Shown here in pieces: positions 15,121 through 33,004 of a stretch of DNA of 44,979 bases (its first letter is position 1; each line of letters begins with the position of its first letter). The DNA is from an uncultured Candidatus Saccharibacteria bacterium. Its GTDB lineage: Bacteria > Patescibacteriota > Minisyncoccia > Phycocordibacterales > UBA5272. Position numbers and translations under genes: made by a program. The notes under the pieces were generated by a model. It had not been told where the DNA came from and made no database searches. It worked only from the letters and a program-made list of their open reading frames with translations. Where the stretch lies: assembly GCA_964510805.1 (NCBI GenBank), contig CAZEDG010000005.1, positions 1 to 44,979 on the forward strand, written 5' to 3'.

Positions 15121-15270
15121 CCATCGTTGCATGGGCCCGCAACGACGGTCATTGTTTGAATGAGGAATGAAGAAAGAAGACCGCTTCGCTTGTAGAAAAC
15201 CAGAAGTTAGATGTTAGACTTTAGGTATCTGTAGCTACTAATTACGAATAACTAATAACCAATTACGACC
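15113..15270. repeat. Type-B hairpin (15113-15156) plus heptamer flank
   Basis: AACAATGACCATCGTTGC-ATGGGCCC-GCAACGACGGTCATTGTT with one mismatch. The second copy is at 22763. Followed by GCTTCGC and TAGATGT/TAGACTT/TTACGAA heptamers. Confidence 0.85.
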
Positions 15271-15271
15271 C

Positions 15272-16177
15272 ATGCCCTACACACTTCTCCTAAGAATCAC
15301 ACTCTTCTCCATCTTTCTTGGTTGTATAGCTCTTACTGACTCTCTTTTTCATCTTGGAATTAAGGACATGCTTCCAGAGAGCGCTCAAAATCTTATCTGG
15401 TACCCCTTCATCTTCGGTACTCCACATATCGTTGCGTCATTCTTTTCGTATGCACATAGTGGTTACTATACGCACTACAAAAAACTTATCCTTCAGTCGC
15501 TCGGTGTAAGTCTTCTTCTTGTGTTTGTTTCTTTTATCTTTCTTCCACACTACGCAATGTATCTTTTTATTGCATATACTATGTACCACGTCGCATCACA
15601 ACAAATAGGTCTATCGAGGCCCTACAGTACCAACAAAACTTCGTATGATATGTGGAAATATTTCAGTCTTGTAGGCATTATCGCGATCACACTTTTTGTA
15701 GGAGGGGAGAATATGATGGTTCCTCTAACTATCATGCTTCCTTTTCTTCTGTATACCGGAAGCATCTCGCTTGGATTAGCTACATTCTTTGGCTATGAAA
15801 CTTTTAAAACATGGAATTACGGCATGGCAACAGTTGCGCTCTTTACTCTTGCTCTTCTTGTGATACTTCTTGGCTATCCTTTTGTTGGTATTCTTATGGC
15901 AAGACTTTCTCATGATATAAGTGCGTATAGCATCTACATCACTCATGCATGGAAAGGGGACACACTGTTTACCCGTGAATCACTTCGTTACTATACTCCT
16001 GTGTTCTATACAGTCTTCTTCTCACTTCTTTCGCTTGGTATAAGTTATCTTCTTGTGTCACATGTTAATTCAGTCTTTGTGCTTATCATTGTCATGGTTC
16101 TTTCTCTTATGCACTACATGCTCGAAGGAAAGGTATGGAAGAAAGGAGGAATGCATAGGGGGATGCTTGGTAATTAG
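15272..16177 (+). CDS. Polytopic membrane protein with four intramembrane His motifs (possible metalloenzyme)
   Basis: About nine TM helices. Motifs FGTPHIVAS, MYHVASQQIG, RLSHDISAY and LMHYMLEGKVWK. Confidence 0.7.
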   Translation: MPYTLLLRITLFSIFLGCIALTDSLFHLGIKDMLPESAQNLIWYPFIFGTPHIVASFFSYAHSGYYTHYKKLILQSLGVSLLLVFVSFIFLPHYAMYLFIAYTMYHVASQQIGLSRPYSTNKTSYDMWKYFSLVGIIAITLFVGGENMMVPLTIMLPFLLYTGSISLGLATFFGYETFKTWNYGMATVALFTLALLVILLGYPFVGILMARLSHDISAYSIYITHAWKGDTLFTRESLRYYTPVFYTVFFSLLSLGISYLLVSHVNSVFVLIIVMVLSLMHYMLEGKVWKKGGMHRGMLGN

Positions 16178-16279
16178 TAATTCGTTATTCGTAATTAGCA
16201 GAAGCGACACCTTCGGTGTCGCTTCTGTACTTTTGTATTCTGTATTACACGAATTACGAATAACCAATAACGAATTACT
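16176..16279. repeat. Intergenic mosaic element, copy A4 (palindrome 16199-16227)
   Basis: CAGAAGCGACACC-TTC-GGTGTCGCTTCTG. The outer inverted arms are AGTAATTCGTTATTCGTAATT and AATTACGAATAACCAATAACGAATTACT (7-bp units). Confidence 0.9.
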
Positions 16280-16343
16280 GGTTCCCTGTTCATAACTTCT
16301 TCCTTCCTCCACCTATTCCGGGCTATACTTCAAGTATCTTTCT

Positions 16344-17288
16344 ATGTACGCACCAAAAAGTGATCAAGCAATGACCACCAAGAAGGCTCTTACTGTGCTT
16401 GGTATGGTTGGTTTTCTTTTCATGCTTACTTTTATTGTTCCTGCTCGACTCGTTGGACTAGACGATACACCTAAGAAAAAGAAGCGTGACCCACTTGTAC
16501 TTAAAACCTATCAAGAGCTCAAGCAGTTAGACGGAGACAAAGATGGTAACGGTATTCCTGATTGGAAGGATGTTATCAATGCGACCATGAGCACTTCAAC
16601 TAAGCAAACTGTCGGAACCAAGACACTTGATGAAGCGACCAGAAAACGCCTTGAAGATCCTAACAACTTAACGGTATCGTTTTCCAAAAATATTTATATC
16701 GCATCAGCATACGCCGAGAAGCAAGGTAACTTAACCAAGGAGCAAAAAGAAGAGCTTGTTCAAACTGTTCTCGAAGGGGAGAGGGTTAAGTTAACAAGAA
16801 AAGAATACACTGTCGATGATCTTACTTTAATAAAAGATGAATCTCCTTTATTTATCAAGTCTTATGGTAATAATCTTGGCACAATCTACTCAGAGGCTCT
16901 TAAAGCAAATGCAACCCAAAATGACCTTGCAATTCTAAAAGCTTACGAAGAAAGTAAAGATAAGACACTACTTACAGGTTTTGTTGTTAAAAAAAATATT
17001 ATCCTAAAAGCTGTTAACGAACTCGCAACGATGAGAGTTCCTTATTCGGCAACACCTCTTCATCTCGAGGTTCTTAACAAATTATCAGAATACTATGCTA
17101 TTTTGGATAATCTCTCCGTCGCTGATTCTGACCCGCTACGATCTGCTCTTGCGTTCAACGCTTACAAGGACAACATGGTGTCTATGCACTCAGCATTTAT
17201 CGCACTTAATAACTATTTTGTTTTTAAACAGATAACTTTTTCAAAAAGTGATTCTGGTTTTAGTGTCTTTTCGGAGTATACTCAATAA
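16344..17288 (+). CDS. Membrane-anchored helical protein with a thrombospondin type-3-like Ca-binding loop
   Basis: N-terminal TM helix and DKDGNGIPDWKD loop. First gene of the T4SS-like cluster. Start could be 16368. Confidence 0.75.
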   Translation: MYAPKSDQAMTTKKALTVLGMVGFLFMLTFIVPARLVGLDDTPKKKKRDPLVLKTYQELKQLDGDKDGNGIPDWKDVINATMSTSTKQTVGTKTLDEATRKRLEDPNNLTVSFSKNIYIASAYAEKQGNLTKEQKEELVQTVLEGERVKLTRKEYTVDDLTLIKDESPLFIKSYGNNLGTIYSEALKANATQNDLAILKAYEESKDKTLLTGFVVKKNIILKAVNELATMRVPYSATPLHLEVLNKLSEYYAILDNLSVADSDPLRSALAFNAYKDNMVSMHSAFIALNNYFVFKQITFSKSDSGFSVFSEYTQ

Positions 17289-17296
17289 TAATTACT

Positions 17297-19009
17297 ATGA
17301 AACATTATCATTCTTTAAAGTATTTTTTTGTAACAATTATTCTTGTTGCACAGCTTTCTTCTTCTCGTGCGCACGGAGCTTCACTTGTTGCTGGTGCCCT
17401 TGAGCCAACACAATGGCTTAACAATATTGCTCTTCTTATGAGTTACGCAGAGGAATACTACACCTCGGTACAACAAGCAATGTCAACGTACGATCAGACG
17501 ATAGGACGACCTCTTAACACTATGATGATTAATGCTGCCATTCAACAAGCCTCTGGTGATCTTATCAACTGGGGAAATGGTGGGTATGGAGGTGATTCGC
17601 TTATTATTTCTGACCCAGAAAAGTACATCAAGGACCAAGGACTCCTTGCGGTGAAGGAAACGCTTAACCAGATACCAGAAGACAGCGTCTACGGTGCAAG
17701 CATCTTCAAGAATCTCTACAAAAGATACCAAGCAACAGACGGTTCTTCTGTAGAAGAACGTCTTCTTGCTATCACTAAGTCTGAAGTACCTGGACTTGTA
17801 CAGAAGAATCTCTGTAGCGATGCAGACCTTACAAGAATTGCCAAGGAAGACATTGAGAACACTGACGGCAGTTACTCTGTCGACGAACTCAACAAGCGTA
17901 AAGCAGAGCTCTATGACTATGCTTGTAAAGGAGATTCGAGTGACCCAGAACAACAGAAGAAACTACAAGACCTTGCAGATCAGCGTCCATCAATTACAGG
18001 ATGGGATGGATGGCTTGCTCTTACAGGCGGAGATAATGCATATTCAAAAACTGAACAAGCTTATAAAATACATGAAGAAGAAAAAGATACACAACAAGAG
18101 GGTGTTAAAGAAGACATGAAAGGAAGGGGTGCGGTAAGTGCAAAAGAATGTTTTAAGCGAGGTGAACCTGCTTCTGAAGGGGAAGACGGCCCTTGTCTTG
18201 ACGAAGAAGTAACAACTCCAAGTGCCCAAGTAAACGCTTCTCTCTCAAATGCAGCCGATGCGGGGCTTGATAGATTAATTAACCTCACAGAAGGAGGTCT
18301 TACTAACCTTATTGCAACCCTGGCCGTTCAACAATTAACCAAAGGACTTCGTGCTGAGTTCATTGATAGCGATAAAAAAGTCAACGTTACCACAACCAAA
18401 ACATCTAAATCTTCATCAAAACCAGATTTACAAGGGGACCCAGAAGCAAAGACTTCTATGCTTGCGCCTCTTCTTAAGCAACTTGATGCTTACGAGGCAG
18501 GCCTCATCAAACTCAAAGATATCGACAAAGCGTACAGTGGCGAAATCACAAGATATGAATCAGTTGTTAAGTCAGGAAGAGCTTGTTATGATGGGCTTGT
18601 TGAAGCCAACAGACTTTCTCCAAGTGACCCTAAGGCAGTTTCTGCATACGATATCTATAATAATCGACAAGATCGTATTGATAGAGTCAAAAAAATCATT
18701 ACTCCTGAGCTAGCAAAAATTGACTCGGCGAGAACGCTCATTCAAGAGACACTTACTAAACTAAATGCAGCAAGTTCAACAAAAGAAATAAGCACTATCT
18801 ACTCAAACTATACGTATACAATTGATTCAAAAAAATACCCAGATGTTCAGGCAGAAGGTCAACGCAGAGGAGACTATATGAAAGACAAGAACGATGCTAA
18901 GAACGACGTCGATCCACCTAAGGACTATAAGGGGACAGACACGGTGAAATATGCGAATGACCAATGTACCAAGCTAGGAGGGGTACTAAGTGTCCCAGAG
19001 GGAATCTAG
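17297..19009 (+). CDS. Exported helical protein with TrbJ/VirB5-like N-terminus
   Basis: Signal peptide (SRAHG/A), then GALEPTQWLNNIAL resembling the TrbJ ATEWTQLxNNxEL pattern. Six Cys. Lies upstream of a VirB6-like gene. Confidence 0.6.
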   Translation: MKHYHSLKYFFVTIILVAQLSSSRAHGASLVAGALEPTQWLNNIALLMSYAEEYYTSVQQAMSTYDQTIGRPLNTMMINAAIQQASGDLINWGNGGYGGDSLIISDPEKYIKDQGLLAVKETLNQIPEDSVYGASIFKNLYKRYQATDGSSVEERLLAITKSEVPGLVQKNLCSDADLTRIAKEDIENTDGSYSVDELNKRKAELYDYACKGDSSDPEQQKKLQDLADQRPSITGWDGWLALTGGDNAYSKTEQAYKIHEEEKDTQQEGVKEDMKGRGAVSAKECFKRGEPASEGEDGPCLDEEVTTPSAQVNASLSNAADAGLDRLINLTEGGLTNLIATLAVQQLTKGLRAEFIDSDKKVNVTTTKTSKSSSKPDLQGDPEAKTSMLAPLLKQLDAYEAGLIKLKDIDKAYSGEITRYESVVKSGRACYDGLVEANRLSPSDPKAVSAYDIYNNRQDRIDRVKKIITPELAKIDSARTLIQETLTKLNAASSTKEISTIYSNYTYTIDSKKYPDVQAEGQRRGDYMKDKNDAKNDVDPPKDYKGTDTVKYANDQCTKLGGVLSVPEGI

Positions 19010-19215
19010 AAGGACTAGATGTTAGCTACGAGACTTTAGAGGTTAGAGATACAAGAGCGACACCTTCGGTGTCGCTCTTGTATTCTTGTATCTCGTCTGT
19101 AGTCTATTTATCTGTGTTCTGTTGTCTCATTTTGCCTTCTGCCTCGCTCTTGTATTCTGTGTTATCTGTATTTTCTAAAGTCTAACATCTAATATCTAGT
19201 GCCATTAACTATCTG
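19010..19215. repeat. Intergenic mosaic element, copy A5 (palindrome 19049-19083)
   Basis: ATACAAGAGCGACACC-TTC-GGTGTCGCTCTTGTAT. Starts ACTAGATGTTAG and ends CTAACATCTAATATCTAGT. Shares a 57-bp block with copy A6. Confidence 0.9.
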
Positions 19216-19255
19216 TTTACCCTCTACTCTCTGTATTTTATGGTACACTATTAGC

Positions 19256-21997
19256 ATGAAAAAGCTTGGAAGTATTCTTGCTGTAGTGTTTCTTTTTGCT
19301 TGTTTTTTTGGTGCTACAACATCTTATGTAGAGGCACAAAATGCTCCAGTTGTTGCAAACATAAGCATGTTATCTGAAACATCTTCAAAAATATTCACAC
19401 AAGTATTAAACCAACTTAACCCAGGCTCTAGCCAAATAGATAAAAATCTTTACGATCTTATAAAAGGAGCACAAAATCAATACGATAAAAGTATACAGAA
19501 TGACAAAAATACAGGTGGTGGAATGGCAATGAAATCCGCTAAAGATGTCTATATCAAGGCTTTAAATTCATCAGTTGATTATATAAATAGTAATAAAAAT
19601 GATTCAAAGTTCCAAGATCAAAAATCTATTAGTGTTATTACAAATCTATTAAACTTACTTAATGGAGAAATAAATAACCAAGGTTTGGTTCAAAACTTTT
19701 CAAAACCAACAGATGAAGCAAGTAAGGCAACAGAAAGCGCAAAACAAGCTGCTGCGAAAAAAGCAGAAGACACAAAAGAACAATGTTCTATAAACTTTCT
19801 TTCTTCAGACGGAGTTAATATCGGTGCTTGTGTTACTGCTGTATTCAACTGGTTCATCAAAAGCATTCTCCTTAACATTGCCGGTGTTCTCCTCTGGCTT
19901 TCAGCTACCATATTTAACAAAGCTGTTATTCTTGGAATTCTTGATTTCAGTCGATGGGCACCGGAATCTCTTTATCCTATCTGGATAGTGATACGACAAA
20001 TCGTCTCTCTTCTACTTGTATTCGTTGGTCTCTATCTCGGCTTCTTATACATCCTAGGAAGAGAAGATAAGTTTGAGAAGTATATCCCTTGGGTGGTTAT
20101 CTTCGGGCTCTTTGTTAACTTCTCCTATCCGCTCGCACGCACCGCAATTGATGTTTCTAATATTGTCACCCTTAAGGTCTACACTTCTGCTTTTGGGTCA
20201 AATGTCCTCGATGAGAACAGTGTCCAGTCAGAAACAAGTCCAGGAAGTAGCATTATGAGAAGTCTTGGATTAAGTGGCTTGGTTACAGCTGCGGTTAATA
20301 AAAAAGATGGAGCAAAAGGAGAAACAGGGTTCTCTGAGAACCTAGATATTCCTGGATCACTTCTTACCGTTGTATATGTTCTGTACTCAGCATATGTCCT
20401 TTTTAGATTTGCACTTCTTGTAATTGTAAGAACGGTGGTGTTCGTGTTTATGATTATTGCTTCACCTCTTCTTCTTGTAGATAGTGTTCTCCCTGTACTT
20501 GGAGATAAAGCAAAAGATTTACGTAAAGTGTTCCTGGAGCAACTCGCGGTTGGGCCAGTATTTATGATTCTCTTTGTGATCACACTTAGATTCCTAGAAG
20601 TCTTCAAGGTTACAAACATTCCAAAAACAAATGCTGATTTTATCGCTTCTTCTTTTACTATTATCTTAATGCTTGCAATGCTTCAAATCACTCTTAAAGT
20701 TACGACCAAGATTGCAGGAGAAGCTGGTGCATGGGGAACAGAAAAGCTCGGCAAGATCGGAGGCTTCGGCCTTGGTGTTGCAACAGGAGGGACAGGGTTA
20801 CTTGCAAGACAGACAATAGGAAGAGGGGCGACAATGCTACGAGACAGTAAATGGGTAGAAAGAAACCAAGATTCATTCTTAGGAAGAAGAGCCTACGACC
20901 TTTCTAACTCTGTAGCAAAAAGCTCTTTTGATCTTCGTAATTCCAAAATTGTAGCCCGTGGTGCAGGTATGGCAGGGCTCGATAAAGGACTCTTCGGTAC
21001 AGGGATGGGTACTGGTAAGTCGACAAACTACGAACAAGGACTTAAAGAGCGCCTAGACAAGAAAAAAGTAATAGCAGGTAGAATAAAAACAAAATACGAA
21101 AGAGACGTCTACAAAACAAATGAAAAAGGAGAGGTTCAATATGACCCTAACACCGGTCTACCTATTGTAGAACACAAAGCTGGAGAAACTGTTGAAGATG
21201 CTGTTAACACAAGAATGAGATATCTTCAAGGTGACGCTTCTCGTTTTATGACCAAGGAAGAAAAAGAAAAACTTGCAGACCAAGAACTTGACGCCTCTGT
21301 AAAAGCAAATGAGGCTCTTTACAAAGAAAAGAAAAAGAAGGGGGGAGGCGCTGATAAAAAATTCGTTTCTGAGCTCGAAACGAGACTACAAGAACTTAAA
21401 AAGAGCGACAAAGATCTTAAAAGTATCGAGGCTCGTACTGTTGTCAAAACACTTGAATCTATCAAAAAAGATAGTGATAACTTTGATAAGCGTGTAACGG
21501 CTTCTTTTGAACAATATGGAACGTACGCTGATGCAAAAGATCGTAAAAAGTTTATTGATTCTAAAGTCCTTGGATCAGAAGATGAGGACTTCAAAAAAGA
21601 TGTGCTTGCAAAAATATATGAATCAACAAAAGCAAATAAGCAGGAACAAGAAGCTTTTCTTAACTCACTCCCTCAAGAAGTTAGAACTTCTTTGTCTGGA
21701 TCATCAGCTTCTGTTCCTGAAGCCCCTGAAGTGACAACCACAATCTCTTCAAACCCTTATGGATCAAAAACAGTAATACCTTCTTCGTCTATTAACACAA
21801 GTGAACTTGATAAAGCAGGCTTCGAGGGACAAGTAAAAGAAGTTGTTGTACAACCTGTAGAAGAAAAACCTCTCACTTTTGCAGAAAAAAGAAAATTAGC
21901 TATGGACAAAGCTCGTGCAAGTATGGGAGAAAACGTTGGTAGCGGATCTTCTACTTCTTCAAATCAAGCGCCCGCACCTGTAAATGCATCAGCCTAA
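19256..21997 (+). CDS. TrbL/VirB6-like polytopic membrane protein with long soluble extensions
   Basis: Signal peptide, about eight TM helices (e.g. WVVIFGLFVNFSYPLARTAIDVSN, MIIASPLLLV), a Gly-rich post-TM stretch and a charged C-tail. ATG 19256 lies 6 nt after TGGTACACT. Confidence 0.75.
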   Translation: MKKLGSILAVVFLFACFFGATTSYVEAQNAPVVANISMLSETSSKIFTQVLNQLNPGSSQIDKNLYDLIKGAQNQYDKSIQNDKNTGGGMAMKSAKDVYIKALNSSVDYINSNKNDSKFQDQKSISVITNLLNLLNGEINNQGLVQNFSKPTDEASKATESAKQAAAKKAEDTKEQCSINFLSSDGVNIGACVTAVFNWFIKSILLNIAGVLLWLSATIFNKAVILGILDFSRWAPESLYPIWIVIRQIVSLLLVFVGLYLGFLYILGREDKFEKYIPWVVIFGLFVNFSYPLARTAIDVSNIVTLKVYTSAFGSNVLDENSVQSETSPGSSIMRSLGLSGLVTAAVNKKDGAKGETGFSENLDIPGSLLTVVYVLYSAYVLFRFALLVIVRTVVFVFMIIASPLLLVDSVLPVLGDKAKDLRKVFLEQLAVGPVFMILFVITLRFLEVFKVTNIPKTNADFIASSFTIILMLAMLQITLKVTTKIAGEAGAWGTEKLGKIGGFGLGVATGGTGLLARQTIGRGATMLRDSKWVERNQDSFLGRRAYDLSNSVAKSSFDLRNSKIVARGAGMAGLDKGLFGTGMGTGKSTNYEQGLKERLDKKKVIAGRIKTKYERDVYKTNEKGEVQYDPNTGLPIVEHKAGETVEDAVNTRMRYLQGDASRFMTKEEKEKLADQELDASVKANEALYKEKKKKGGGADKKFVSELETRLQELKKSDKDLKSIEARTVVKTLESIKKDSDNFDKRVTASFEQYGTYADAKDRKKFIDSKVLGSEDEDFKKDVLAKIYESTKANKQEQEAFLNSLPQEVRTSLSGSSASVPEAPEVTTTISSNPYGSKTVIPSSSINTSELDKAGFEGQVKEVVVQPVEEKPLTFAEKRKLAMDKARASMGENVGSGSSTSSNQAPAPVNASA

Positions 21998-22024
21998 AAT
22001 AAAATCATATACTATACTAACACT

Positions 22025-22765
22025 ATGGCACTTCCATCATATGTAGCAAAAGATATAGATGATCGTTTCGATAATGCTTCTGAAGAAATTCAGAATGTTA
22101 TTTTAGAAGAAGCGGACAAAACAACTCTTGCTCTTGGAGAAAAATATAAGATACCTCTTGCCAATCAGACTGCACTATCTGATGTCATTTCGTACACCCT
22201 CCTTGGTGCAATAGAACCAGGGGATGTGGTACAAGCTCTTCAAGATATGGTACTTGTGAGTAGCGAAGACGCAGTACATATCGCAGAAGATCTTGAGCAC
22301 TCAGTCTTCGAGAAGGCTCGTATCTCGCTCTTCAAAAAAAGCGGTGAAGTGAAGACGCTTGAATTCCAAGGAGATAAGACTAAGGATGATCTACGAAAAG
22401 CACTTCTTGATACCACCAAGCGCGAATCAGGGCTCAACAAAAACCAAGCAAAGGAAGGAGGAGATAAGAAGACAACTGTACTCGCACCAGGATCACGCGC
22501 ACAACTCCTAGAGCAACTCCAAGTACTTAGCTCTATTCCAAATGATGAAGAAATAGAGTCGAGACTTAAGCATATCCAGGACCAGATCTCTCTCATCAAA
22601 AAACAAGAAGAAGACAACACACTCACTTCAAATATCGCACTCAAATCCTTCCTCTTCGGAGAAAAAGGGAAGTCAGTCGCAGACCCAACCATTGCAACAG
22701 CAACCTATAGTGTCGCCCCAACAGAATACAACGTAGATCCGTATCGAGAACTACCAGCAGAATAG
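22025..22765 (+). CDS. Conserved-looking hypothetical protein ending in a DPYRE motif
   Basis: 246 aa with C-terminal YNVDPYRELPAE. TATACT 6 nt upstream of the ATG. Confidence 0.75.
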   Translation: MALPSYVAKDIDDRFDNASEEIQNVILEEADKTTLALGEKYKIPLANQTALSDVISYTLLGAIEPGDVVQALQDMVLVSSEDAVHIAEDLEHSVFEKARISLFKKSGEVKTLEFQGDKTKDDLRKALLDTTKRESGLNKNQAKEGGDKKTTVLAPGSRAQLLEQLQVLSSIPNDEEIESRLKHIQDQISLIKKQEEDNTLTSNIALKSFLFGEKGKSVADPTIATATYSVAPTEYNVDPYRELPAE

Positions 22766-23005
22766 AAACAATGACCGTCATTGCATGGGCCCGCAATGAC
22801 GGTCATTGTTTCTAGACAACAGACCACTTCGCTACAGACAGTAAGACAACAGACTAATACAAAAGCGACACCGAAGGTGTCGCTTTTGTGTTCTTGTATC
22901 TCGTCTGTAGTCTATTTATCTGTATTCTGTTGTCTCATTTTGCCTTCGATGTCGCTTCTGTGTGCCGGTATCCACTATTAACTATTAACCATTAACTACT
23001 AACCT
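22763..23005. repeat. Composite element: type-B hairpin (22763-22814) + copy A6 (22859-22889) + 57-bp block + TTAACYA heptamers
   Basis: 22-bp perfect stem around ATGGGCCC. ACAAAAGCGACACC-GAA-GGTGTCGCTTTTGT. 22891-22947 matches 19083-19139 at 56/57. Confidence 0.9.
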
Positions 23006-23024
23006 AGTATGGTATACTTTCCTT

Positions 23025-23459
23025 ATGCAATTTCGTGTCCCACAATTTATTGATGTAGAAGACAAAGTAATTGGCCCTTTTACCCTCAAACAATTCGGAT
23101 ATATCGTTGGAGCAGGGGGATTTTCTTTTCTCATTTGGACTTTTATACCGATTAAGTTCATTGCGGTACTTTTTATTATCCCTGTTGCTTCACTCTTTCT
23201 TTCGCTTGCTTTTCTTAAAATCAACAATAGACCTTTTGGAGATATTCTCGAAAGCGCCTTCAGTTACTATACAGGAAACAAAATTTATACATGGAAACAA
23301 CCAGAACAAAAAGCGACAGAGACTTCTGTTGATCAAGTTGTTGCCAACACCCAAAAAGAAATTATTATCGAAAAAACAAACCGTGACCGTATCCACGATA
23401 TTTCTCTTGGGCTTGATGTCTTCGATGCTAACTCACAGAAAGAAGATGACTCTAACTAA
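23025..23459 (+). CDS. PrgI-family (VirB3-like) membrane protein
   Basis: MQFRVPQFIDVEDKVIGPFTLKQFGY followed by two TM helices and KINNRPF. Confidence 0.85.
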   Translation: MQFRVPQFIDVEDKVIGPFTLKQFGYIVGAGGFSFLIWTFIPIKFIAVLFIIPVASLFLSLAFLKINNRPFGDILESAFSYYTGNKIYTWKQPEQKATETSVDQVVANTQKEIIIEKTNRDRIHDISLGLDVFDANSQKEDDSN

Positions 23460-23484
23460 AGATACGCTATACTAGGAAGTACGT

Positions 23485-24129
23485 ATGGCAACCCAAGGAC
23501 AAGCAACCCAAGCATTCGTTCCAATAGATCGTGTAAGAGATGGTATCGTTATCCTAAAAACAGGTGAACTACGAGCTATTCTTATCACGAACTCTCTTAA
23601 CTTAGGACTTAAGAGTGAGGACGAACAGCAGGCAATTCTTTCACAATTCCAAAACTTTCTTAACTCTCTTGATTTTCCTGTGCAATTCTTCATCGAGTCT
23701 CGCAAGCTTAACATCAAGCCATATATAGATCTTCTTCAAAAACGAAGCGGGGAAGTAAAAGAAGACCTTCTCAAGATTCAGATTCATGAATACATGGGCT
23801 TTATCACCAAGTTCACCGAAGAAAACAACATCATGTCTAAGCATTTCTTCATCAGTATTCCGTATTTTAACCAAAGCACAACCCAAGTAGCTCCTCCTAC
23901 ACTTCTTTCTCTTGCTGGGGTTAATAATCCAAGCAATTCATCATTTGATGCGTCATTTGAAGCGGCGCGCATCCAGTTAGAGCAACGAACCTTAACAGTA
24001 CTACAAGGACTCTCAAGGTTCGGTCTCCGTGCACAGAGACTTGGTACAGAAGAGGTGGTAGAACTTTTTTATAAAATCTTCAACCCAAGTGAAGAAGACC
24101 GTGAAGCTCCTAAGGTAGGAACACAATAA
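23485..24129 (+). CDS. VirB4-associated protein (resembles the N-terminal non-catalytic part of conjugative ATPases)
   Basis: VPIDRVRDGIVILK...SLNLGLKSEDEQQAIL...FLNSLDFPVQ. Lies between PrgI and VirB4. Confidence 0.65.
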   Translation: MATQGQATQAFVPIDRVRDGIVILKTGELRAILITNSLNLGLKSEDEQQAILSQFQNFLNSLDFPVQFFIESRKLNIKPYIDLLQKRSGEVKEDLLKIQIHEYMGFITKFTEENNIMSKHFFISIPYFNQSTTQVAPPTLLSLAGVNNPSNSSFDASFEAARIQLEQRTLTVLQGLSRFGLRAQRLGTEEVVELFYKIFNPSEEDREAPKVGTQ

Positions 24130-24140
24130 CACTAACTAGT

Positions 24141-25967
24141 ATGGGATTATTCGACTTTTTAAACAAAAAACAAGACAAACCTCTCTCTTCACCTGTTACT
24201 CCGGTGCTTCCAGAGCAGGTGTATAAAGTTGCGGAGATGCAACTTAAGGATATTATTGCGCCAAGTGCTCTTGAAATTAAACCAAAAGAACTTGATCTTG
24301 GTACGGTTATTGTTCGTTCTTATTTCGTTACTTCATATCCTCGTTATCTTAACGATAATTGGCTAAGTCCTCTTATCAATCTCGACAAAATATTTGATAT
24401 CTCTATTCATGTTGTTCCTCTTAACACAGGAGAGGTGATGAAGGGATTCCAAAGAAAAGTTGCCGAAGTGCAAAGCCAGATTATGACACGAGAAGAGAAG
24501 GGGCTTGTGCGAGATCCTTCTCTTGATGTTGCGTACCAAGACCTCGAAGATCTTCGTGACGGACTCACCCAAGCACAAGAGAGAATGTTCGAAGTATCAC
24601 TCTATATCACACTCTATGGCAAGACCAACGAAGAGATAGATAAGGTTGAAAATGAGATCAAGAACATCCTTGAGAGTAAACTTATCTACGTGAAGCCTTC
24701 ACTTTTCCAACAAGACGCAGGATTCCTCTCCACAATTCCGGTAGGGCAAGATATTATGCAGATCAAGAATAAGATTAACACCTCACCGTTGTCTTCATTC
24801 TTCCCATTTGTTTCATTTGATCTTTCTTCTGATAAAGGTATTCTCTACGGACTCAATCGTCACAATGGAAGCCTTATCCTTTTCGATCGTTTTTCTCTTG
24901 AAAACTACAACTCTATTGTCTTTGCTAAGTCAGGTTCTGGAAAAAGTTATTTCACCAAGCTTGAAATCTTGCGCACACTCATGTTCGATACTGAGGTGAT
25001 TATTATTGACCCTGAACGAGAATATGAGTTCTTGGCTGAATCTGTTGGAGGAAGATATTTCGATATTTCTCTTGTTGGAGAACATCATATTAACCCTTTT
25101 GACCTTCCTCAACCAACCAAAGATGAATCTCCTTCTGAAGTGCTTCGTAGTAACATTGTTAACCTTGTAGGACTTTTCCGTGTCATGCTTGGAGGTCTTA
25201 GCCCAGAAGAAGATGCGATTATCGACCAGGCAATTACTGAAACGTACGCACTCAAGGACATCACCGGAGATTCTGATTTTACTGAACTTGAGCCACCTCT
25301 TCTTTCTGATTTTGAGACGGTACTTTCTGGTATCGAAGGATCAGACAGTCTTCTCCAAAGAGTTCAGAAGTATACACAAGGCACGTGGTCTGGTTTTCTT
25401 AACCAACCATCCAATGTTGATATCAACAAGAAGCTTGTCTGTTTCTCTATTCGTGACATGGAAGATGAGCTTAAGCCTGTTGCGATGTATCTTATTACTC
25501 ATCACATTTGGAACGCTGTTCGTAAGAATCTTCGCAAGAGACTTCTTGTTGTTGATGAAGCATGGATTATGATGAAGAATGACGATACTGCGTCATTCCT
25601 CTTTGGACTCGCGAAGCGTGGTCGTAAGTACTATCTTGGTCTTGCAACCATCACTCAAGATGTGGGCGACTTCCTTAAGTCACCATATGGACTTCCTATT
25701 ATTACCAACTCATCAATCCAGATTCTCCTTAAGCAATCACCTTCTTCTATCGACCTAATCCAAAAGACATTCAATCTTACTAACGAAGAAAAATTCTTAC
25801 TTCTTGAATCTGGTGTAGGTGAGGGGATATTCTTTGCTGGACTCAAGCATGTAGCAATTAAAGTTGTTGCTTCATATACCGAAGATCAGATTATCACCAG
25901 TGATCCATCACAACTTCTTAAGATTCAACAAATGAAAGAAGAAGTGGCGGATTCAAAAAACGTATGA
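24141..25967 (+). CDS. virB4: VirB4-family secretion ATPase
   Basis: Walker A AKSGSGKS, IIIDPEREY, HINPFD, Walker B LLVVDEAW, GRKYYLGLATITQDVGDF, GEGIF. Confidence 0.9.
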   Translation: MGLFDFLNKKQDKPLSSPVTPVLPEQVYKVAEMQLKDIIAPSALEIKPKELDLGTVIVRSYFVTSYPRYLNDNWLSPLINLDKIFDISIHVVPLNTGEVMKGFQRKVAEVQSQIMTREEKGLVRDPSLDVAYQDLEDLRDGLTQAQERMFEVSLYITLYGKTNEEIDKVENEIKNILESKLIYVKPSLFQQDAGFLSTIPVGQDIMQIKNKINTSPLSSFFPFVSFDLSSDKGILYGLNRHNGSLILFDRFSLENYNSIVFAKSGSGKSYFTKLEILRTLMFDTEVIIIDPEREYEFLAESVGGRYFDISLVGEHHINPFDLPQPTKDESPSEVLRSNIVNLVGLFRVMLGGLSPEEDAIIDQAITETYALKDITGDSDFTELEPPLLSDFETVLSGIEGSDSLLQRVQKYTQGTWSGFLNQPSNVDINKKLVCFSIRDMEDELKPVAMYLITHHIWNAVRKNLRKRLLVVDEAWIMMKNDDTASFLFGLAKRGRKYYLGLATITQDVGDFLKSPYGLPIITNSSIQILLKQSPSSIDLIQKTFNLTNEEKFLLLESGVGEGIFFAGLKHVAIKVVASYTEDQIITSDPSQLLKIQQMKEEVADSKNV

Positions 25968-26935
25968 CACGCTTCCTAAAACTAGTAACCTTTACTCTTT
26001 CGATATATCTAAGTACTTGTGTCTTTAGTTTTGCTGAGATTAGCGCTTCGGTTAAGTTGATGCCAGCTAATCCAGAACCAAAAAGTAAAGTCACCTTAAC
26101 TCTTGTAAGTTACTCGTTTAACCCAGATACTGCTTTTGTTTCATGGAAAGTAAACGGTCGAGACTTTGCTTCTGGTCTTGGAAAAAAAGATATTACCATC
26201 CAAACAGGTGATATCGGTGCAACCACTCAAGTCTCTGTTCATGCAGAAACAGCGGACGGATCTTCTATTGATCAAGTTATTAGCATCACTCCTTCTTCTG
26301 TAGTGTTACTCTATGAAGCTCCAAAAAGCTATGTCCCTCTTCTGTATGAAGGTAGATCTCTTCCAAGTGATGGAGCTCTTGTACGCGTAACCGCACTTCC
26401 TCAGCTAAGCGATAACGGCACACCTGTTCCTCCTGGGAACCTTTCGTATACTTGGTATCTTAATGATACTGTAGTAAAAAGTGTCTCTGGTGCAGGCAAG
26501 CAATCTGCACTCATTCGTCTTGATTACTTAAGAACAAGTAATGAGATTAGGGTCGTTGTTCGCAGTCCACTCGGAAACACTGCTGATGAAAAAATAACTA
26601 TCTACACTCACTCAATACTACCAATTCTCTATCTCTCTGATCCTCTTTTTGGTACTAATGTTACTACACGTATCGGTAAGAGATTCGAAACTACTCGAGA
26701 TTTTAGAATTGTTCTTGAGCCTTTTTATATTTCTTACAACGACCCAAAAGAAGCAACCTATTCTTGGTTTATTAATGGACTTCCATCAACCCCTCTTGAT
26801 GGAAGAACTCTTGATCTTCATCCAAAAGAAAATGATTATGGTATTAAAAAACTTTCCATAAAGCTCTACGGTGCGGACAAACGTCTACAGACAAGTGAAG
26901 TAGAGACCGAAATTGTTTTTGACACAAGAAAATAG
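25964..26935 (+). CDS. Exported beta-rich (Ig-like) protein
   Basis: Signal peptide (FSFA/E) and repeated YTWYLN/VSWKVN/YSWFIN strands. ATGA overlap with virB4. Confidence 0.7.
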   Translation: MTRFLKLVTFTLSIYLSTCVFSFAEISASVKLMPANPEPKSKVTLTLVSYSFNPDTAFVSWKVNGRDFASGLGKKDITIQTGDIGATTQVSVHAETADGSSIDQVISITPSSVVLLYEAPKSYVPLLYEGRSLPSDGALVRVTALPQLSDNGTPVPPGNLSYTWYLNDTVVKSVSGAGKQSALIRLDYLRTSNEIRVVVRSPLGNTADEKITIYTHSILPILYLSDPLFGTNVTTRIGKRFETTRDFRIVLEPFYISYNDPKEATYSWFINGLPSTPLDGRTLDLHPKENDYGIKKLSIKLYGADKRLQTSEVETEIVFDTRK

Positions 26936-26972
26936 TTTATACTAAGAAAAAATACCTCTGTATACGATTTCT

Positions 26973-27824
26973 ATGGCAACTTCTACCACCCCACTTTCTT
27001 ATATACCTCTTGAAGGAAAATCTTTAAATGCTCTTGGTGTCGAAGCTCCCACATTCGACGGCCAAGCCTCCTTACTTGCAACCTCTACTTTTGTCTATAC
27101 GTTATTCTTTATAGCTATTGTTATGGCTGCGTTTTATAGGTATGTCCATGCTGGAACATTACGTATTCAAGCTTCAGAGAGTGGTATACGACAATCTAAT
27201 GAGATTATACGTAAAGTAACACTTGGTCTTATTGGTGTCTTTATGTTGTTTATTCTTTTGTTTACAGTGAATAGGAATTTAGTGACAGGGGATGTGGGGT
27301 TCGGGGGGTTGAGTGGAACAAGTACGAGAATAGCAACGGGAGCACAAGGAAATCAACCGCAACAATCACAACCGTCACCTGCCCAAAGCGGAAGTAAGAA
27401 CTACCAAGAGAGACTTAAGAGTCATAATCAAACAGTCTCTAGACTTAGCCCTTCAGGGATTACAACAAATCATAACAATGCACCATGTACTGAGGACCAA
27501 TTCAATCAAAAATATCCAACTTGTACCAGTCTTGCATTTATGAGAGAAGAAAGTATACAGACGATTTTTAGAGTTAGTGGTGATTGTCATTGTAAACTTA
27601 TTATTACCAGTGGAACAGAACCAGGTCATGATAGTCACGGGGAGAACCTTCGCCCTTTTGATCTTCAAAAAAACGCTGAGCTTGATACTTTTTTGAAAGG
27701 AGTAAGTGGTTCAGTTACATCAAATAAGGATTGTGATGCTGTTTATAGATATAATGGTTTTAGTTTTTGTGACGAAAAGAGGAGACCTAATCCAACTTGG
27801 GCTCCACACTATCATGTGTACTAG
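26973..27824 (+). CDS. VirB2-type pilin module fused to a Zn-peptidase-like (M15/LAS, Hedgehog/DD-peptidase fold) cargo
   Basis: Two hydrophobic helices separated by a QASESGIRQSNEIIRK loop, then an S/Q linker. Cargo ITSGTEPGHDSHGENLRPFD...HYHV has six Cys. Confidence 0.7.
   Translation: MATSTTPLSYIPLEGKSLNALGVEAPTFDGQASLLATSTFVYTLFFIAIVMAAFYRYVHAGTLRIQASESGIRQSNEIIRKVTLGLIGVFMLFILLFTVNRNLVTGDVGFGGLSGTSTRIATGAQGNQPQQSQPSPAQSGSKNYQERLKSHNQTVSRLSPSGITTNHNNAPCTEDQFNQKYPTCTSLAFMREESIQTIFRVSGDCHCKLIITSGTEPGHDSHGENLRPFDLQKNAELDTFLKGVSGSVTSNKDCDAVYRYNGFSFCDEKRRPNPTWAPHYHVY
27048..27316 (+). repeat. 269-bp direct repeat copy 1 (pilin module)
   Basis: Matches 29239-29507 with 5 mismatches, 4 of them synonymous. 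Confidence 0.97.
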
Positions 27825-27875
27825 TGGTGTATTACCTACACACATTTATATTAGGTTCTTGCTATACTAAGCTCC

Positions 27876-29174
27876 ATGGACAATACCACCCGTAAACGTC
27901 TGGCAATCGCAGTACTTGTTGTACTCTTTTTTGTTGTCATTATTTTGGTGTGGTACTTTTTTTATGCGAAACCTACTGAAAGCCCTATAACAAAAAAAGG
28001 TGGCCCTTATTTTGGTCAACAAGGAAGACGTCCTGGGGACACCTTCATCCTCTCCCATGCAACATCTTCTTCTGTTACCTTCGTAAGTGATCCGCTTAAG
28101 GATCCTCTTGTTCAAATTTGGGACAAACCAGCAACAGGGGAAACCTATGTTGTACAAAATATCATGAAAGATGTCATGGAAAAGATTGATAATGGTTCTT
28201 CGACAGTAGAAGTAAAGAAAAGCGTCAAAGCAACCTCTACTATCGTTATGTTTGTTGACAGAGAAACAGGGTATATTTATGGGTACCCAATAGAGACTGG
28301 TAAGATTTTCCAGATTAGTAATACCCTTATTCCAGGAATCCATGACGCGTACATCTTTGGTGACGGCACACGTGTTCTTATGCGTTACATCGACCAACAA
28401 AAAAATACTGTTGTTGGTGTTATAGCTACCATTCCTCATGTTCCACAGATAGAGACACCTCTTCCTCTTACTCATATTGAGTATCTCAATTCAAAAGTAG
28501 TTTCTGTTGCAATAAGCCAAGATAAAGAAGAAGTCTCTTATGTAGTAGCAACTGATAATGGTTCTTCTATTTATACTCTTGATAAGGAGCGAGACCCTGT
28601 TCTTGTTGCTTCTTCTCCTTTTAAGGAATGGGACTTAAGTTACGGCGGAAAATCTCTCTACGTGACCACAAAACCTTCTGCATACATCGAAGGTATGACA
28701 TTCAGTCTTCCTCTTTTCCAGTCAGAAATAGTAAAGAAAACAGGTCTTATGACACTTCCTGATGAATCTGGAAATCTTTTTGCAAGTATGTGGGGTAAAC
28801 AAGGTTTGGTAACATTTTTGTATAACAATGGAGCTACTAAAGTGTTTTCTGTACAAACACTTACCAAGAAGTGCGCTTATGGAAGTGAATCACTTCTTGT
28901 CTGTGGTGTTCCACGTACAATCCCTAGAGGAAGTGAAGGTCTTCCTGATGATTGGTTCCAAGGAGCTATTACTTTCCAAGACGACCTCTCAGTAATTAAT
29001 AAGAATGAAGGGATTGCATACCCTCTCTATTCTTTTGATAGTACCAAGGAAGGGGACTTCGATGTATATGGGATTGCTGTTTCAGAAAAAAATGATTTGT
29101 ACACTTTTCTAAGAAGACAAGATGAGACTTTATGGCTTCTTAACACAAACCTGATTGTAGAAGAGCATGACTAG
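27876..29174 (+). CDS. Membrane-anchored beta-rich (propeller-like) protein
   Basis: N-terminal TM helix, short beta-strand repeats and a KCAY...LVCGVP Cys pair. TGCTATACT 7 nt upstream. Confidence 0.7.
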   Translation: MDNTTRKRLAIAVLVVLFFVVIILVWYFFYAKPTESPITKKGGPYFGQQGRRPGDTFILSHATSSSVTFVSDPLKDPLVQIWDKPATGETYVVQNIMKDVMEKIDNGSSTVEVKKSVKATSTIVMFVDRETGYIYGYPIETGKIFQISNTLIPGIHDAYIFGDGTRVLMRYIDQQKNTVVGVIATIPHVPQIETPLPLTHIEYLNSKVVSVAISQDKEEVSYVVATDNGSSIYTLDKERDPVLVASSPFKEWDLSYGGKSLYVTTKPSAYIEGMTFSLPLFQSEIVKKTGLMTLPDESGNLFASMWGKQGLVTFLYNNGATKVFSVQTLTKKCAYGSESLLVCGVPRTIPRGSEGLPDDWFQGAITFQDDLSVINKNEGIAYPLYSFDSTKEGDFDVYGIAVSEKNDLYTFLRRQDETLWLLNTNLIVEEHD

Positions 29175-30159
29175 TACCAGCCAAATTACCTATAAAGCGC
29201 TCGAAGGAGATTCTCTTAATGCGGTTGGGGTAAAGATGCCCACATTCGACGGCCAAGCCTCCTTACTTGCAACATCTACTTTTGTCTATACGTTATTCTT
29301 CATTGCTATTGTTATGGCTGCGTTTTATAGGTATGTCTATGCTGGAACATTACGTATTCAAGCTTCAGAGAGTGGTATACGACAATCTAATGAGATTATA
29401 CGTAAAGTAACACTTGGTCTTATTGGTGTCTTTATGTTGTTTATTCTTTTGTTTACAGTGAATAGGAATTTAGTGACAGGGGATGTGGGGTTTGGGGGGT
29501 TGAGTGGTAGCGGTGGTAGTAATGGATCAAAAATATCTACAACACAAACAGCATCCTCTCAAGGAACATCCAATACGCAAGGAAAAACTTGTGAATCTCC
29601 AGGTGCTGTTATTTCAAGAATGAGCTCACAGAATGGTGTCTGTGGTAATACTTCATGTACAAAGTTATCTGGATGTAATTACAAACAATACGAATCTGTA
29701 ATCGCAACCTACACAGGAAATGATACACGACTTAAGAAGATGGCTATTGTAGTACTTTGTATAGAATCAGGAGGTAATCAAAGGGCTTCCAATAATAATC
29801 CTGATGGAACGTATGACTGTGGTCTCATGCAAATTAACCAAAAAGCACCTTGTACAGACTCTTCTTTTAACATTGAATACAATATTCAAAAAGGAGTTGA
29901 TAAGCTACGATATGCTTTATCAAAAAGTTCTCAAGTGTATCCAGGAGTTCCTGTAGAAGCTACAGTATTTTCTTCTTATAATTGTTGCTCTAATGGCACA
30001 ATACCAGGTAGTCCAAGTAATGATTGCACACCGCAAGCAGGGTTCCCTTCTACACTTCCTAAATGGGCATGTCCTATTAATCCAGGTGAAGGGAAATATA
30101 ATATGTGTTCAGTAAAATCCTATGCCTGTGAAGCTTCTGCTTGTTTTAATCAACTCTAG
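29167..30159 (+). CDS. VirB2-type pilin module fused to a Cys-rich lytic transglycosylase (SLT/VirB1-like) cargo
   Basis: Same pilin module as 26973. Cargo motifs CIESGG, YDCGLMQIN and SSYN, with 14 Cys. Confidence 0.82.
   Translation: MTSTSQITYKALEGDSLNAVGVKMPTFDGQASLLATSTFVYTLFFIAIVMAAFYRYVYAGTLRIQASESGIRQSNEIIRKVTLGLIGVFMLFILLFTVNRNLVTGDVGFGGLSGSGGSNGSKISTTQTASSQGTSNTQGKTCESPGAVISRMSSQNGVCGNTSCTKLSGCNYKQYESVIATYTGNDTRLKKMAIVVLCIESGGNQRASNNNPDGTYDCGLMQINQKAPCTDSSFNIEYNIQKGVDKLRYALSKSSQVYPGVPVEATVFSSYNCCSNGTIPGSPSNDCTPQAGFPSTLPKWACPINPGEGKYNMCSVKSYACEASACFNQL
29239..29507 (+). repeat. 269-bp direct repeat copy 2 (pilin module)
   Basis: Offset 2191 bp from copy 1. Identity ends abruptly after GGGGGGTTGAGTGG. 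Confidence 0.97.
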
Positions 30160-30878
30160 AGAGGTTTAAGGTGCGCTAACTTATTCTTAACATAAATATC
30201 AAGTACATAACTCACCGAACTACTTACAAGCCAGTAAAGAGATAAAGCAGAAGGAAGCACACTTCCAGATATTGCAACAATAATTGGAATAACATACGTT
30301 ACCTGAATTTTCATCGACTTCATAAAATGATCTTGGAAAGAATCTCCCCCTTTTGAATGATCACTAGAACCCATATATTCTGTTTGTCTTCTTGCAAGTA
30401 AAAATGAAGCAAAGCCAGCAAGCACAGCAATAACAAGATTCTTTTGTGTTACATCAAAAAGACCGAATGCTTTTGTGTGCAACGTTTCTGGAAAAGTAAT
30501 AAAAGAATACAAAGAGTTAGGGTCAGTGTGTAACCCTTTAGAAAAGACGAAATAGAGCGCAAAGAATACAGGAATCTGAAGTATCATTGCAAAAAGCCCA
30601 GACAATGGATTAATCTTTTCACTTCTATAGAGTTCAATCATTTTTTTAGAAGCCTCTTGCGGATCTTTCTTTTGTAACTCTTTTATTTTGTTTAGTTCTG
30701 GCTCAATTTTCTTCATCAAGTACTGTGTACGAAGTGCAGAGACGTTAAAAGGAAGAAGAAGTAACTTTACAATAAGCGTCACAATAATAATTGTCGCTCC
30801 GATATCATGAAGAGGGACAACGGTAAGAGTAAAAGCAATAAGATTGTAAACTGGTTCGTAAAATAAAGTATGGAACAT
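30156..30878 (-). CDS. yidC: Membrane protein insertase YidC/Oxa1
   Basis: IIVTLIVKLLLLP, KIEPELNKIKE, LYRSEKINPLSG, QIPVFFALY, LSLYWLVSS. Canonical position after rnpA. Confidence 0.95.
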   Translation of the reverse strand: MFHTLFYEPVYNLIAFTLTVVPLHDIGATIIIVTLIVKLLLLPFNVSALRTQYLMKKIEPELNKIKELQKKDPQEASKKMIELYRSEKINPLSGLFAMILQIPVFFALYFVFSKGLHTDPNSLYSFITFPETLHTKAFGLFDVTQKNLVIAVLAGFASFLLARRQTEYMGSSDHSKGGDSFQDHFMKSMKIQVTYVIPIIVAISGSVLPSALSLYWLVSSSVSYVLDIYVKNKLAHLKPL

Positions 30879-30880
30879 AA

Positions 30881-31198
30881 TTATCTAAGTGTAGCAAATG
30901 CTTTTTGTAATTCTAAACTAAACTGTGAGTAGGGGGTAGTGAGTGCTTTTTGTTTTGGATAAATCACACAAGAATACGTTGGTGGAATACTAACTGTCTG
31001 TAAAAAAGTATACACTTTTCTTTTTACATAATTTCTATCAACTGCTTTTTTAATTGTTTTTTTGGAAATAACACAAGCGTATTTTTGGTTCGGTAAAGCT
31101 TCTGTATAAGCGATATCGAATAATTCATGACGAAAAAAGACCCGAGGACGTAATCCTTCGAAGTCTTTTTTTGAAAATCGCTTCGTTACAGGAAGCAT
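30881..31198 (-). CDS. rnpA: Ribonuclease P protein component
   Basis: MLPVTKRFSKKDF, VISKKTIKKAVDRNYVKR (RNR-like motif). Synteny with rpmH and yidC. Confidence 0.92.
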   Translation of the reverse strand: MLPVTKRFSKKDFEGLRPRVFFRHELFDIAYTEALPNQKYACVISKKTIKKAVDRNYVKRKVYTFLQTVSIPPTYSCVIYPKQKALTTPYSQFSLELQKAFATLR

Positions 31199-31216
31199 AC
31201 ATCTACTAATCTAAGC

Positions 31217-31351
31217 TTATACACTAAGCTTTTTGCGACCAATACTTCTTCTTCTTGCAAGAGCTTTACGTCCACCTTTAGTAGACATTCTTACTAGGAA
31301 TCCGTGGGTTGTACCTCGCTTCTTTCTTTTTGGATTATATGTAATCGACAT
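31217..31351 (-). CDS. rpmH: 50S ribosomal protein L34 (44 aa; not in ORF track)
   Basis: Translated by hand: [50 protein letters not shown] 6 nt upstream. Confidence 0.96.
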
Positions 31352-31483
31352 GGCGCTATTCTACATTAAAACTACGAACAAATCAAGAAAGTATCTTTTT
31401 TGAAATAATAAAGAGAAAATACTTCAAAAAAAACATACGTCAAGTTGAATCTCTACCATTCATGTGTATACTTACTCATACAT

Positions 31484-32821: not shown

Positions 32822-32826
32822 AGAGA

Positions 32827-32999
32827 CTAGATGTTAGATATTAGACTTTAGAGATTAGAAAATACAAGAGTGAAGCCTTCGGCCTCACTCTTGTATTTTT
32901 GTATCTACTATTAACCATTAACTATTAACTTATTTATACTTCTCTAACATCTAGTTTCTCATTTTCATTCTTCATTCCTCACTCTTTTCCTAACATCTA
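32827..32999. repeat. Intergenic mosaic element, copy A7 (palindrome 32859-32899)
   Basis: TAGATGT TAGATAT TAGACTT TAGAGAT TAGAAAA heptamers, then AAAATACAAGAGTGAAGCC-TTC-GGCCTCACTCTTGTATTTT. 12-bp inverted ends at 32827-38 and 32943-54. Confidence 0.9.
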
Positions 33000-33004
33000 T
33001 CATC

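Follow-up and report, generated by a model that had tools for sequence, protein, structure and literature searches.

A 44,979-nucleotide stretch of contig CAZEDG010000005.1, assigned to an uncultured Candidatus Saccharibacteria bacterium and called the window below, contains a cluster of eleven co-directional open reading frames (ORFs), g1 to g11, all on the plus strand at positions 16344-30159. It is quite probable that this cluster is a chromosomally fixed, vertically inherited machine resembling type IV secretion systems (T4SSs), which descends from the monoderm (MPF-FATA) type of conjugation machine and is no longer linked to DNA mobilization. We consider it a fixed cellular machine and not a mobile element because the locus is colinear in 80 species, its VirB4 diverges together with DnaA, and the window contains no mobility genes. 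The same conclusion had been reached in the original prediction, made from the sequence alone. That prediction listed the eleven genes at these coordinates on one strand, where all the ORFs are indeed present, and ten of its eleven gene labels survive testing. The components of the cluster are as follows.

16344-17288, plus strand: g1, N-terminal transmembrane (TM) helix, calcium-binding-type loop DGDKDGNGIPDWKD and all-alpha extracytoplasmic domain; likely start at 16371
17297-19009, plus strand: g2, secreted, cysteine-containing, fast-evolving protein of 570 aa with no recognized fold; profile searches negative
19199-21997, plus strand: g3, extended VirB6/TrbL-like polytopic membrane protein; likely start ATG at 19256
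22025-22765, plus strand: g4, acidic cytoplasmic protein of 246 aa with no TM segment; C-terminal ...YNVDPYRE motif
23025-23459, plus strand: g5, PrgI family protein (VirB3 analogue), membrane hairpin; PF12666 at 38.3 bits (cut-off 27)
23485-24129, plus strand: g6, TrsD-like protein with homology to the very N-terminal part of long VirB4 ATPases; NCBIfam matches
24141-25967, plus strand: g7, VirB4 ATPase; Walker A G265-S269, Walker B D472-E473
25964-26935, plus strand: g8, secreted protein with an Ig/PKD-like beta-sandwich; its start and the virB4 stop overlap (ATGA)
26973-27824, plus strand: g9, VirB2-like (PF18895-type) two-TM hairpin fused to a Cys-rich domain; motif TGGTE..H..HG.G..VD..HWH
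27876-29174, plus strand: g10, N-terminal TM helix, disordered linker and beta-propeller ectodomain; AF2 (AlphaFold2) and Foldseek
29167-30159, plus strand: g11, VirB2-like hairpin as in g9, here joined to an SLT/lysozyme-like (VirB1-type) domain; 14 Cys; SLT matches

Conservation of the locus and divergence of VirB4

One genome per species was scanned for relatives of the locus, with matches in more than 564 species, of which the 80 best loci (L001-L080) were compared. In all of these best 80 species, which are Paceibacteria, the order UvrD-KsgA-(g1..g11)-yidC-rnpA-dnaA-dnaN-PBP1 is colinear. Domain searches of the sizeable ORFs of the 45-kb window found no relaxase, type IV coupling protein (T4CP; VirD4/TcpA), VirB11 or integrase domain, as had been predicted. 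No flanking att-like repeats were observed in the window either; the repeats at the borders of the cluster are generic intergenic hairpins. The original prediction had named a relaxase, oriT and att sites, and a patchy presence among close relatives as signs of an integrative conjugative element (ICE). No relaxase or att-like repeat occurs in the window, and synteny is retained in the 80 species.

A comparison of the locus with phylogeny had also been proposed. The distances of VirB4 track those of DnaA (r = 0.85, Mantel 0/999, n = 51 genomes), and no outlier pair suggests transfer. The correlation with the mean of DnaA, DnaN and PBP1 is r = 0.88, and controls comparing housekeeping proteins with each other give 0.83-0.93. 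VirB4 has a smaller p-distance than DnaA in 95% of 1275 genome pairs, with a regression slope of 0.45, and it stays 70-92% identical where DnaA drops to 48%. The median identity to the window in distant genomes is 71% for VirB4, 51% for PBP1, 49% for DnaA and 30% for DnaN. VirB4 is the slowest-evolving protein of the neighbourhood, changing at about half the rate of DnaA, and is under strong purifying selection.

Other genes of the cluster differ in this respect. Genes g1, g3, g5, g6, g7, g8 and g10, and a pilin gene at the position of g9, are kept across the class. Genes g2 and g4 and the hydrolase fusions are not recognizable outside the closer clade, and fast evolution is seen in g2, g4 and the hydrolase domains.

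Two candidate traces of mobility were rejected. Joints in sequencing runs (e.g. from 15228 to 32821) were considered as possible traces of excision. On their shorter side only 20-25 letters match; the joints lie within repeated intergenic elements and occur equally in DNA and RNA runs, and the largest of them would delete dnaA. A 45-nt repeat (15113, 22767), considered as a pair of att sites, is a palindrome situated behind two unrelated genes.

Components of the probable secretion machine

The ATPase g7 contains the domains P-loop_TraG (6.3e-25) and AAA_10 (1.5e-9). It is colinear over its full length with TrsE of plasmid pGO1 (22% identity, E 2e-32). The Walker A (GxGKS) and Walker B (DE) motifs are invariant in 81/81 orthologues, and by these motifs g7 is a catalytically intact VirB4 ATPase. 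This VirB4 very likely belongs to the Patescibacteria clade nested in MPF-FATA, because it is 70-92% similar to VirB4 from metagenome-assembled genomes (MAGs) of Paceibacteria, compared to 22% for pGO1 TrsE.

The upstream neighbour of virB4, g6, is the only one of the eleven genes, all of which were run against NCBIfam, that produced matches: VirB4_plasma at positions 102-284 (4.4e-11), TrsD (1.6e-6) and CD1110 at positions 3-127 (5.7e-6). All of these score under the full-length cut-offs, which a match of domain size would be expected to do. Compared directly with pGO1 TrsD by hhalign, g6 gave a weak match, and a PDB sequence-profile search gave none. An hhalign comparison of g6 with g7, made to see whether g6 is a paralogue of the N-terminus of g7 itself, detected no similarity. 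The PrgI family protein g5 has a single hydrophobic stretch of 39 residues, which is sufficient for a hairpin.

The putative channel protein g3 combines a signal peptide with six or more hydrophobic segments, and its hydrophilic C-terminal tail is about 430 aa long. The g3 protein of the window itself has no match in Pfam or in a PDB sequence-profile search, and its hhalign match to pGO1 TrsL is weak. Its positional orthologues in two related loci match TrbL: the one in L057 at 29.1 bits (cut-off 25.9) and the one in L066 at 2.9e-4.

The first 300 nt are common to g9 and g11 (91% identity). The encoded N-terminal module is homologous to PF18895 pilins (hhalign probability 97.7%, E 2.2e-12), and positional orthologues from the distant clade match PF18895 directly in Pfam above the cut-off. 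The C-terminal hydrolase domains of the two proteins are mutually unrelated, and both catalytic domains are predicted to lie outside the membrane. The C-terminus of g11 matches SLT at 5.7e-4, and nine orthologues also match SLT, the best at 2.7e-10. The C-terminal domain of g9 is Cys-rich, and its conserved motif, together with the analogy to Southlakia described below, suggests an LAS/DD-peptidase-like domain; this assignment is unproven.

The pilin modules (26973-27332 and 29167-29526) were compared in ten genomes, namely the window and loci L001-L003, L006-L010 and L016. They are 77-99% identical within each genome and 43-65% identical between genomes. Since the modules are far more alike within a genome than between genomes, the sequence pattern is that of concerted evolution by gene conversion. 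There is no free-standing pilin gene in the cluster of the clade to which the window belongs, whereas distant Paceibacteria have a free-standing pilin at the g9 position.

The remaining genes encode candidate envelope and accessory proteins. The loop DGDKDGNGIPDWKD of g1 is of the calcium type with the pattern DxDxNGxPDW. The TSP3_bac domain was matched by five members of a mixed alignment of g1, g4, g9 and g11 orthologues, and in view of this loop the matching members are presumably the g1 orthologues. The AF2 model of g1 is all-alpha (predicted local distance difference test, pLDDT, 78.8) and matches no PDB fold. The label TrbJ-like, which the original prediction gave to g2, is not supported: profile searches of this protein against Pfam, NCBIfam and PDB were all negative. 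In the DPYRE motif of g4 the residues D, P, Y and E are invariant and R varies to K; no match was found by a PDB sequence-profile search, and g4 is a candidate accessory factor or substrate. The similarity of g8 to Ig, PKD and BiPBP_C domains is weak. The AF2 model of g10 has a pLDDT of 89.9, and its Foldseek matches are TolB/WD40.

Related systems, proposed function and alternatives

Loci of this kind have been described in the literature. Tn-seq (transposon sequencing) demonstrated that genes SEML1_0006-0019 of Southlakia epibionticum, a Saccharibacterium, are essential for epibiotic growth (Wang et al. 2023, Cell 186:4803; PMC10633639). That cluster resembles Gram-positive conjugative T4SSs and has pilins, with no recognizable coupling protein or relaxase; its order is VirB6, two genes, PrgI, an unannotated 293-aa protein at the TrsD position, VirB4, DD-peptidase and lysozyme, and the Hedgehog/DD-peptidase-fold and lysozyme-like proteins after virB4 are both essential (PMC10633639). 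A VirB4-associated TrsD homologue has been reported in this strain (PMC12102498). The same survey of 3,035 genomes (Quinonero-Coronel et al. 2025, Microb Genom 11:001409; PMC12102498) found that Patescibacteria VirB4 proteins form a monophyletic clade nested in MPF-FATA, with TrsD, PrgI, VirB6, VirB1 and VirB2-like genes near virB4. Relaxases occur in only 103 of these genomes and most clusters have none; T4CP homologues are present in most Patescibacteria genomes, far from virB4; and in Paceibacteria the neighbours of virB4 are dnaA, dnaN, rnpA, ksgA and rpmH (PMC12102498). A 2025 review counts the Patescibacteria systems as a new T4SS type (PMC12857230).

The cluster of the window shares with the T4SSs of this clade the PrgI and TrsD-like genes directly upstream of virB4, the VirB6-like gene further upstream, the peptidase (putative in the case of g9) and the lysozyme-like hydrolase downstream of virB4, the PF18895-type pilin modules, the lack of a relaxase or T4CP in the cluster, and, as in Paceibacteria, the neighbours dnaA, dnaN, rnpA, rpmH and ksgA. 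It differs in having two near-identical hydrolase-fused pilin modules instead of divergent free-standing arrays (about 25% identity, PMC12102498), in having no NTF2/VirB8-like protein that we could find, and in the TM-anchored beta-propeller protein g10 and the Ig-like protein g8, which we have not found described. The genetic evidence comes from Southlakia, which is outside this class.

The trs operon of pGO1 (trsC-trsD-trsE-...-trsG-trsK-trsL) has the same order of VirB3-like, TrsD and VirB4 genes, and also contains a wall hydrolase and a TrbL/VirB6 protein. However, the sequence identity is very low, and the pGO1 plasmid has a VirD4-type T4CP, relaxases, topoisomerase III and single-stranded DNA-binding protein, none of which is present in the window, where the cluster is a fixed chromosomal locus.

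The Ced system of Crenarchaeota imports DNA by means of a VirB4/HerA-type ATPase that is accompanied by small membrane proteins and a polytopic one. The system is chromosomal and not self-transmissible, has no relaxase or coupling protein, and its transport direction is known. In contrast to the cluster considered here, it uses another VirB4 lineage and has no PrgI, TrsD, pilin-hydrolase fusions or peptidoglycan hydrolases.

The existence of the cluster, the absence of conjugation genes and the position near the origin are thus already published (2023-2025), and the earlier interpretation is correct but not new, because it is contained in PMC10633639 and PMC12102498. Found here are the slower evolution of VirB4 relative to DnaA, the concerted pilin-hydrolase modules, the lack of a free pilin, the orientation towards the probable replication origin and the TATACT signature of leaderless transcripts (see below). 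No T4SS before that of the Patescibacteria had been shown to be essential for its own bacterium, and these ultrasmall bacteria hold a large share of bacterial diversity. The locus adds no new kind of system. It provides a clean reference anatomy for Paceibacteria, in which universal and fast-evolving parts can be told apart, and three testable details: pilin-hydrolase fusions under concerted evolution, a slow VirB4, and a conserved orientation towards oriC.

A possible mechanism is the following. VirB4, together with the TrsD-like protein and PrgI at the VirB6 channel, would power assembly and translocation. The hydrolases, anchored by their pilin modules, would breach the peptidoglycan of the host, of the cell itself or of both, and g8, g10, g1 and g2 may form the part of the machine that spans the wall or contacts the host. 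Where the cell touches its host, the machine would then carry proteins or other macromolecules through the envelope, with no relaxase involved. Protein export is favoured over import or surface display.

Several observations count against this interpretation. No VirB8-like (NTF2) component was found in the cluster, of which g1 and g10 were folded. Gene g1 was considered for this role and rejected, the model being all-alpha with no match to NTF2 or another PDB fold, and g10 is modelled as a propeller; VirB8 is likewise rarely found in Patescibacteria outside class ABY1 (PMC12102498). Pfam, PHROGs and PDB profile searches with the C-terminal domain of g9 were all negative. No substrate, effector or secretion signal was identified. 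A VirD4-like T4CP may be encoded elsewhere in the genome, as in most Patescibacteria, and DNA transport is thus conceivable. Finally, contigs from three wastewater metatranscriptomes span the whole cluster, which is weak evidence of expression, but coverage in the RNA runs is flat and crosses the terminator-like hairpins. Carry-over of DNA is thus possible, and these data were not counted as proof of expression.

Three other explanations were considered. The PrgI, VirB4, VirB6 and wall hydrolase genes constitute the core of Gram-positive conjugation machines, and the order g5-g6-g7 equals trsC-trsD-trsE of pGO1; the cluster could therefore be the mating-pair-formation module of an ICE, or of its recent remnant, inserted beside yidC. 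This is exceedingly unlikely, given that relaxase, T4CP, integrase, tRNA and att repeats are all absent from the window, that the chromosomal context is identical in 80 species, that VirB4 distances follow those of DnaA without outlier pairs, that VirB4 is more conserved than DnaA, and that the GC content is that of the flanks. A machine that, like Ced, uses the VirB4/VirB6 core to draw in host DNA or other material, thus feeding a cell deficient in nucleotide synthesis, would fit the composition of the cluster, with its VirB4-type ATPase, polytopic VirB6-like protein, small membrane hairpins and no relaxase or T4CP nearby. It would also fit the extreme, housekeeping-like conservation of VirB4 and the absence of nucleotide synthesis in Patescibacteria (PMC10633639). 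We nevertheless regard import as quite unlikely: the Patescibacteria VirB4 groups within the bacterial MPF-FATA, with a minority of 37 homologues grouping with archaeal ones (PMC12102498), and in Southlakia DNA uptake via ComEC and type IV pili is dispensable while the T4SS is essential, which counts against DNA, though not against other material, as the essential cargo.

The third explanation is an adhesion or wall-remodelling device with no translocation, where VirB4 merely assembles pilin-like hairpins displaying hydrolases and adhesins. It is suggested by the fusion of both hydrolases to VirB2-like modules held identical by gene conversion, by the lack of a free pilin gene in the cluster of this clade, and by the role of VirB4 in pilin extraction and pilus biogenesis (PMC12102498). 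However, the channel components, the extended VirB6 and PrgI, are retained under selection, and free-standing pilins occupy the same position in distant Paceibacteria, which makes such a device very unlikely.

A more specific model can be proposed, although it is speculative and on balance rather doubtful. In this Paceibacteria lineage the T4SS would have no free pilus subunit in the cluster, and two wall-cutting enzymes would ride on one VirB2-like module kept identical by recurrent gene conversion. VirB4 would insert or extrude the hydrolase-tipped pilin units, which would bore through the wall of the host or of the cell itself. The machine would then be a housekeeping-grade organelle of feeding or contact and not an accessory secretion system, a reading suggested by the slower evolution of VirB4 relative to DnaA.

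Transcription signals, probable replication origin and neighbouring genes

Candidate terminators and flanking genes are located as follows.

16198-16228, plus strand: GC-rich terminator-like hairpin with TTCG loop, at the upstream boundary of the cluster
19048-19084, plus strand: terminator-like hairpin, by terminator score, separating g1-g2 from g3-g4
22767-22892, plus strand: two terminator-like palindromes, by terminator score (45-nt element; hairpin 22856-22892), separating g3-g4 from g5-g11
30156-30878, minus strand: yidC, flanking gene convergent with g11
30881-31198, minus strand: rnpA, flanking gene
31217-31351, minus strand: rpmH, flanking gene
31445-34322, plus strand: dnaA, a cluster of DnaA-box-like sites and dnaN, flanking region

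Bounded by these terminator-like hairpins, three transcription units are predicted: g1-2, g3-4 and g5-11. The hairpins belong to a family of intergenic elements found throughout the window (3300-3356, 8881-8905, 16196-16252, 19049-19105, 22857-22913, 32862-32918, 34598-34654 and 38282-38338). They are near-perfect, GC-rich and terminator-scoring, of the form ACAAGAGCGACACC-TTCG-GGTGTCGCTCTTGT or a GAGGCC variant, with loops TTCG or GAAG, and are flanked by 7-nt phased repeats TTAGACT/TTAGATA and CTATTAA/CCATTAA. Members of the family lie between most transcription units of the window, and short-read assemblies break there. A second type of terminator-like element is the 45-nt palindrome AACAATGACC.TC.TTGCATGGGCCCGCAA.GACGGTCATTGTT, which has two copies with 93% identity, 15113-15157 and 22767-22811, directly behind the Lnt-like gene and g4, respectively.

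The original prediction assigned individual -10 boxes to several genes. The hexamer TATACT indeed occurs 6-14 nt, mostly 6-7 nt, upstream of 11 of the 33 start codons. Twelve of its 41 occurrences are at such positions (g4 has two), compared to 0.24 expected by chance. Examples of start-codon boxes, TATACT or TACACT, are those at 1640, 4704, 22013, 23013, 27863, 33218 and, on the minus strand, 42153. Of all TATACT hexamers in 20 close relatives, 23% have an ATG 6-7 nt downstream, compared to 2-4% for control hexamers. No Shine-Dalgarno sequence is visible upstream of the boxed start codons. The pattern is a signature of leaderless mRNAs and suggests that they are widespread, including genes inside apparent operons.

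The longest dnaA ORF (31445-32821) opens at TTG 31445. The more likely start is ATG 31484 (Met14), which has a TATACT box 11 nt upstream. The spacer between dnaA and dnaN contains four DnaA boxes with one mismatch each within 186 bp (33005-33190), and this group coincides with the GC minimum and with the minimum of the cumulative GC skew. The origin oriC is thus probably near 33 kb, about 3 kb from the T4SS cluster, as judged from the 45 kb of the window. With oriC so placed, the plus-strand cluster would be transcribed towards it, head-on to the leftward replication fork. All 80 related loci keep this orientation of the cluster.

The window covers a housekeeping region of a small genome with about 40% GC, and the GC content of the cluster runs on evenly from the flanks. 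On the 5' side are NYN, a ComM-like gene, an M23/LysM peptidase, UvrD, KsgA and an Lnt-like gene. On the 3' side yidC, rnpA and rpmH on the minus strand are followed by dnaA, dnaN, PBP1, tyrosyl-tRNA synthetase, RuvC, RuvB and a PilB-type ATPase; the location of the first of these at 30156-34322 bears out the statement of the original prediction that the cluster abuts yidC-rnpA-rpmH-dnaA. No tRNA genes were found in the window, and a search of the whole window against Rfam gave no match. The nearest genomes are Paceibacteria/Parcubacteria MAGs. Metagenomes from wastewater and activated sludge contain near-identical DNA; the VirB4 of the window had no exact match in a contig index.

The PilB/GspE-type assembly ATPase (40435-42141, minus strand) contains T2SSE (1.6e-118) and MshEN domains and probably lies at the border of a type IV pilus locus. 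This protein is the sole ATPase of the T2SSE superfamily in the window; VirB11 is of the same superfamily, but the protein is of the PilB type and not a VirB11.

An ORF of 1270 aa at 4720-8532 (plus strand), with a strong AT skew of 0.2-0.27, lacks Pfam domains, and none of the 80 related loci contains a relative; it thus encodes a lineage-specific giant protein. It is followed by an acidic ORF of 95 aa (8548-8835). At the very end of the window (44730-44979) there are tandem repeats of about 75-81 nt coding for G/Y/T-rich units, broken off at the window end.

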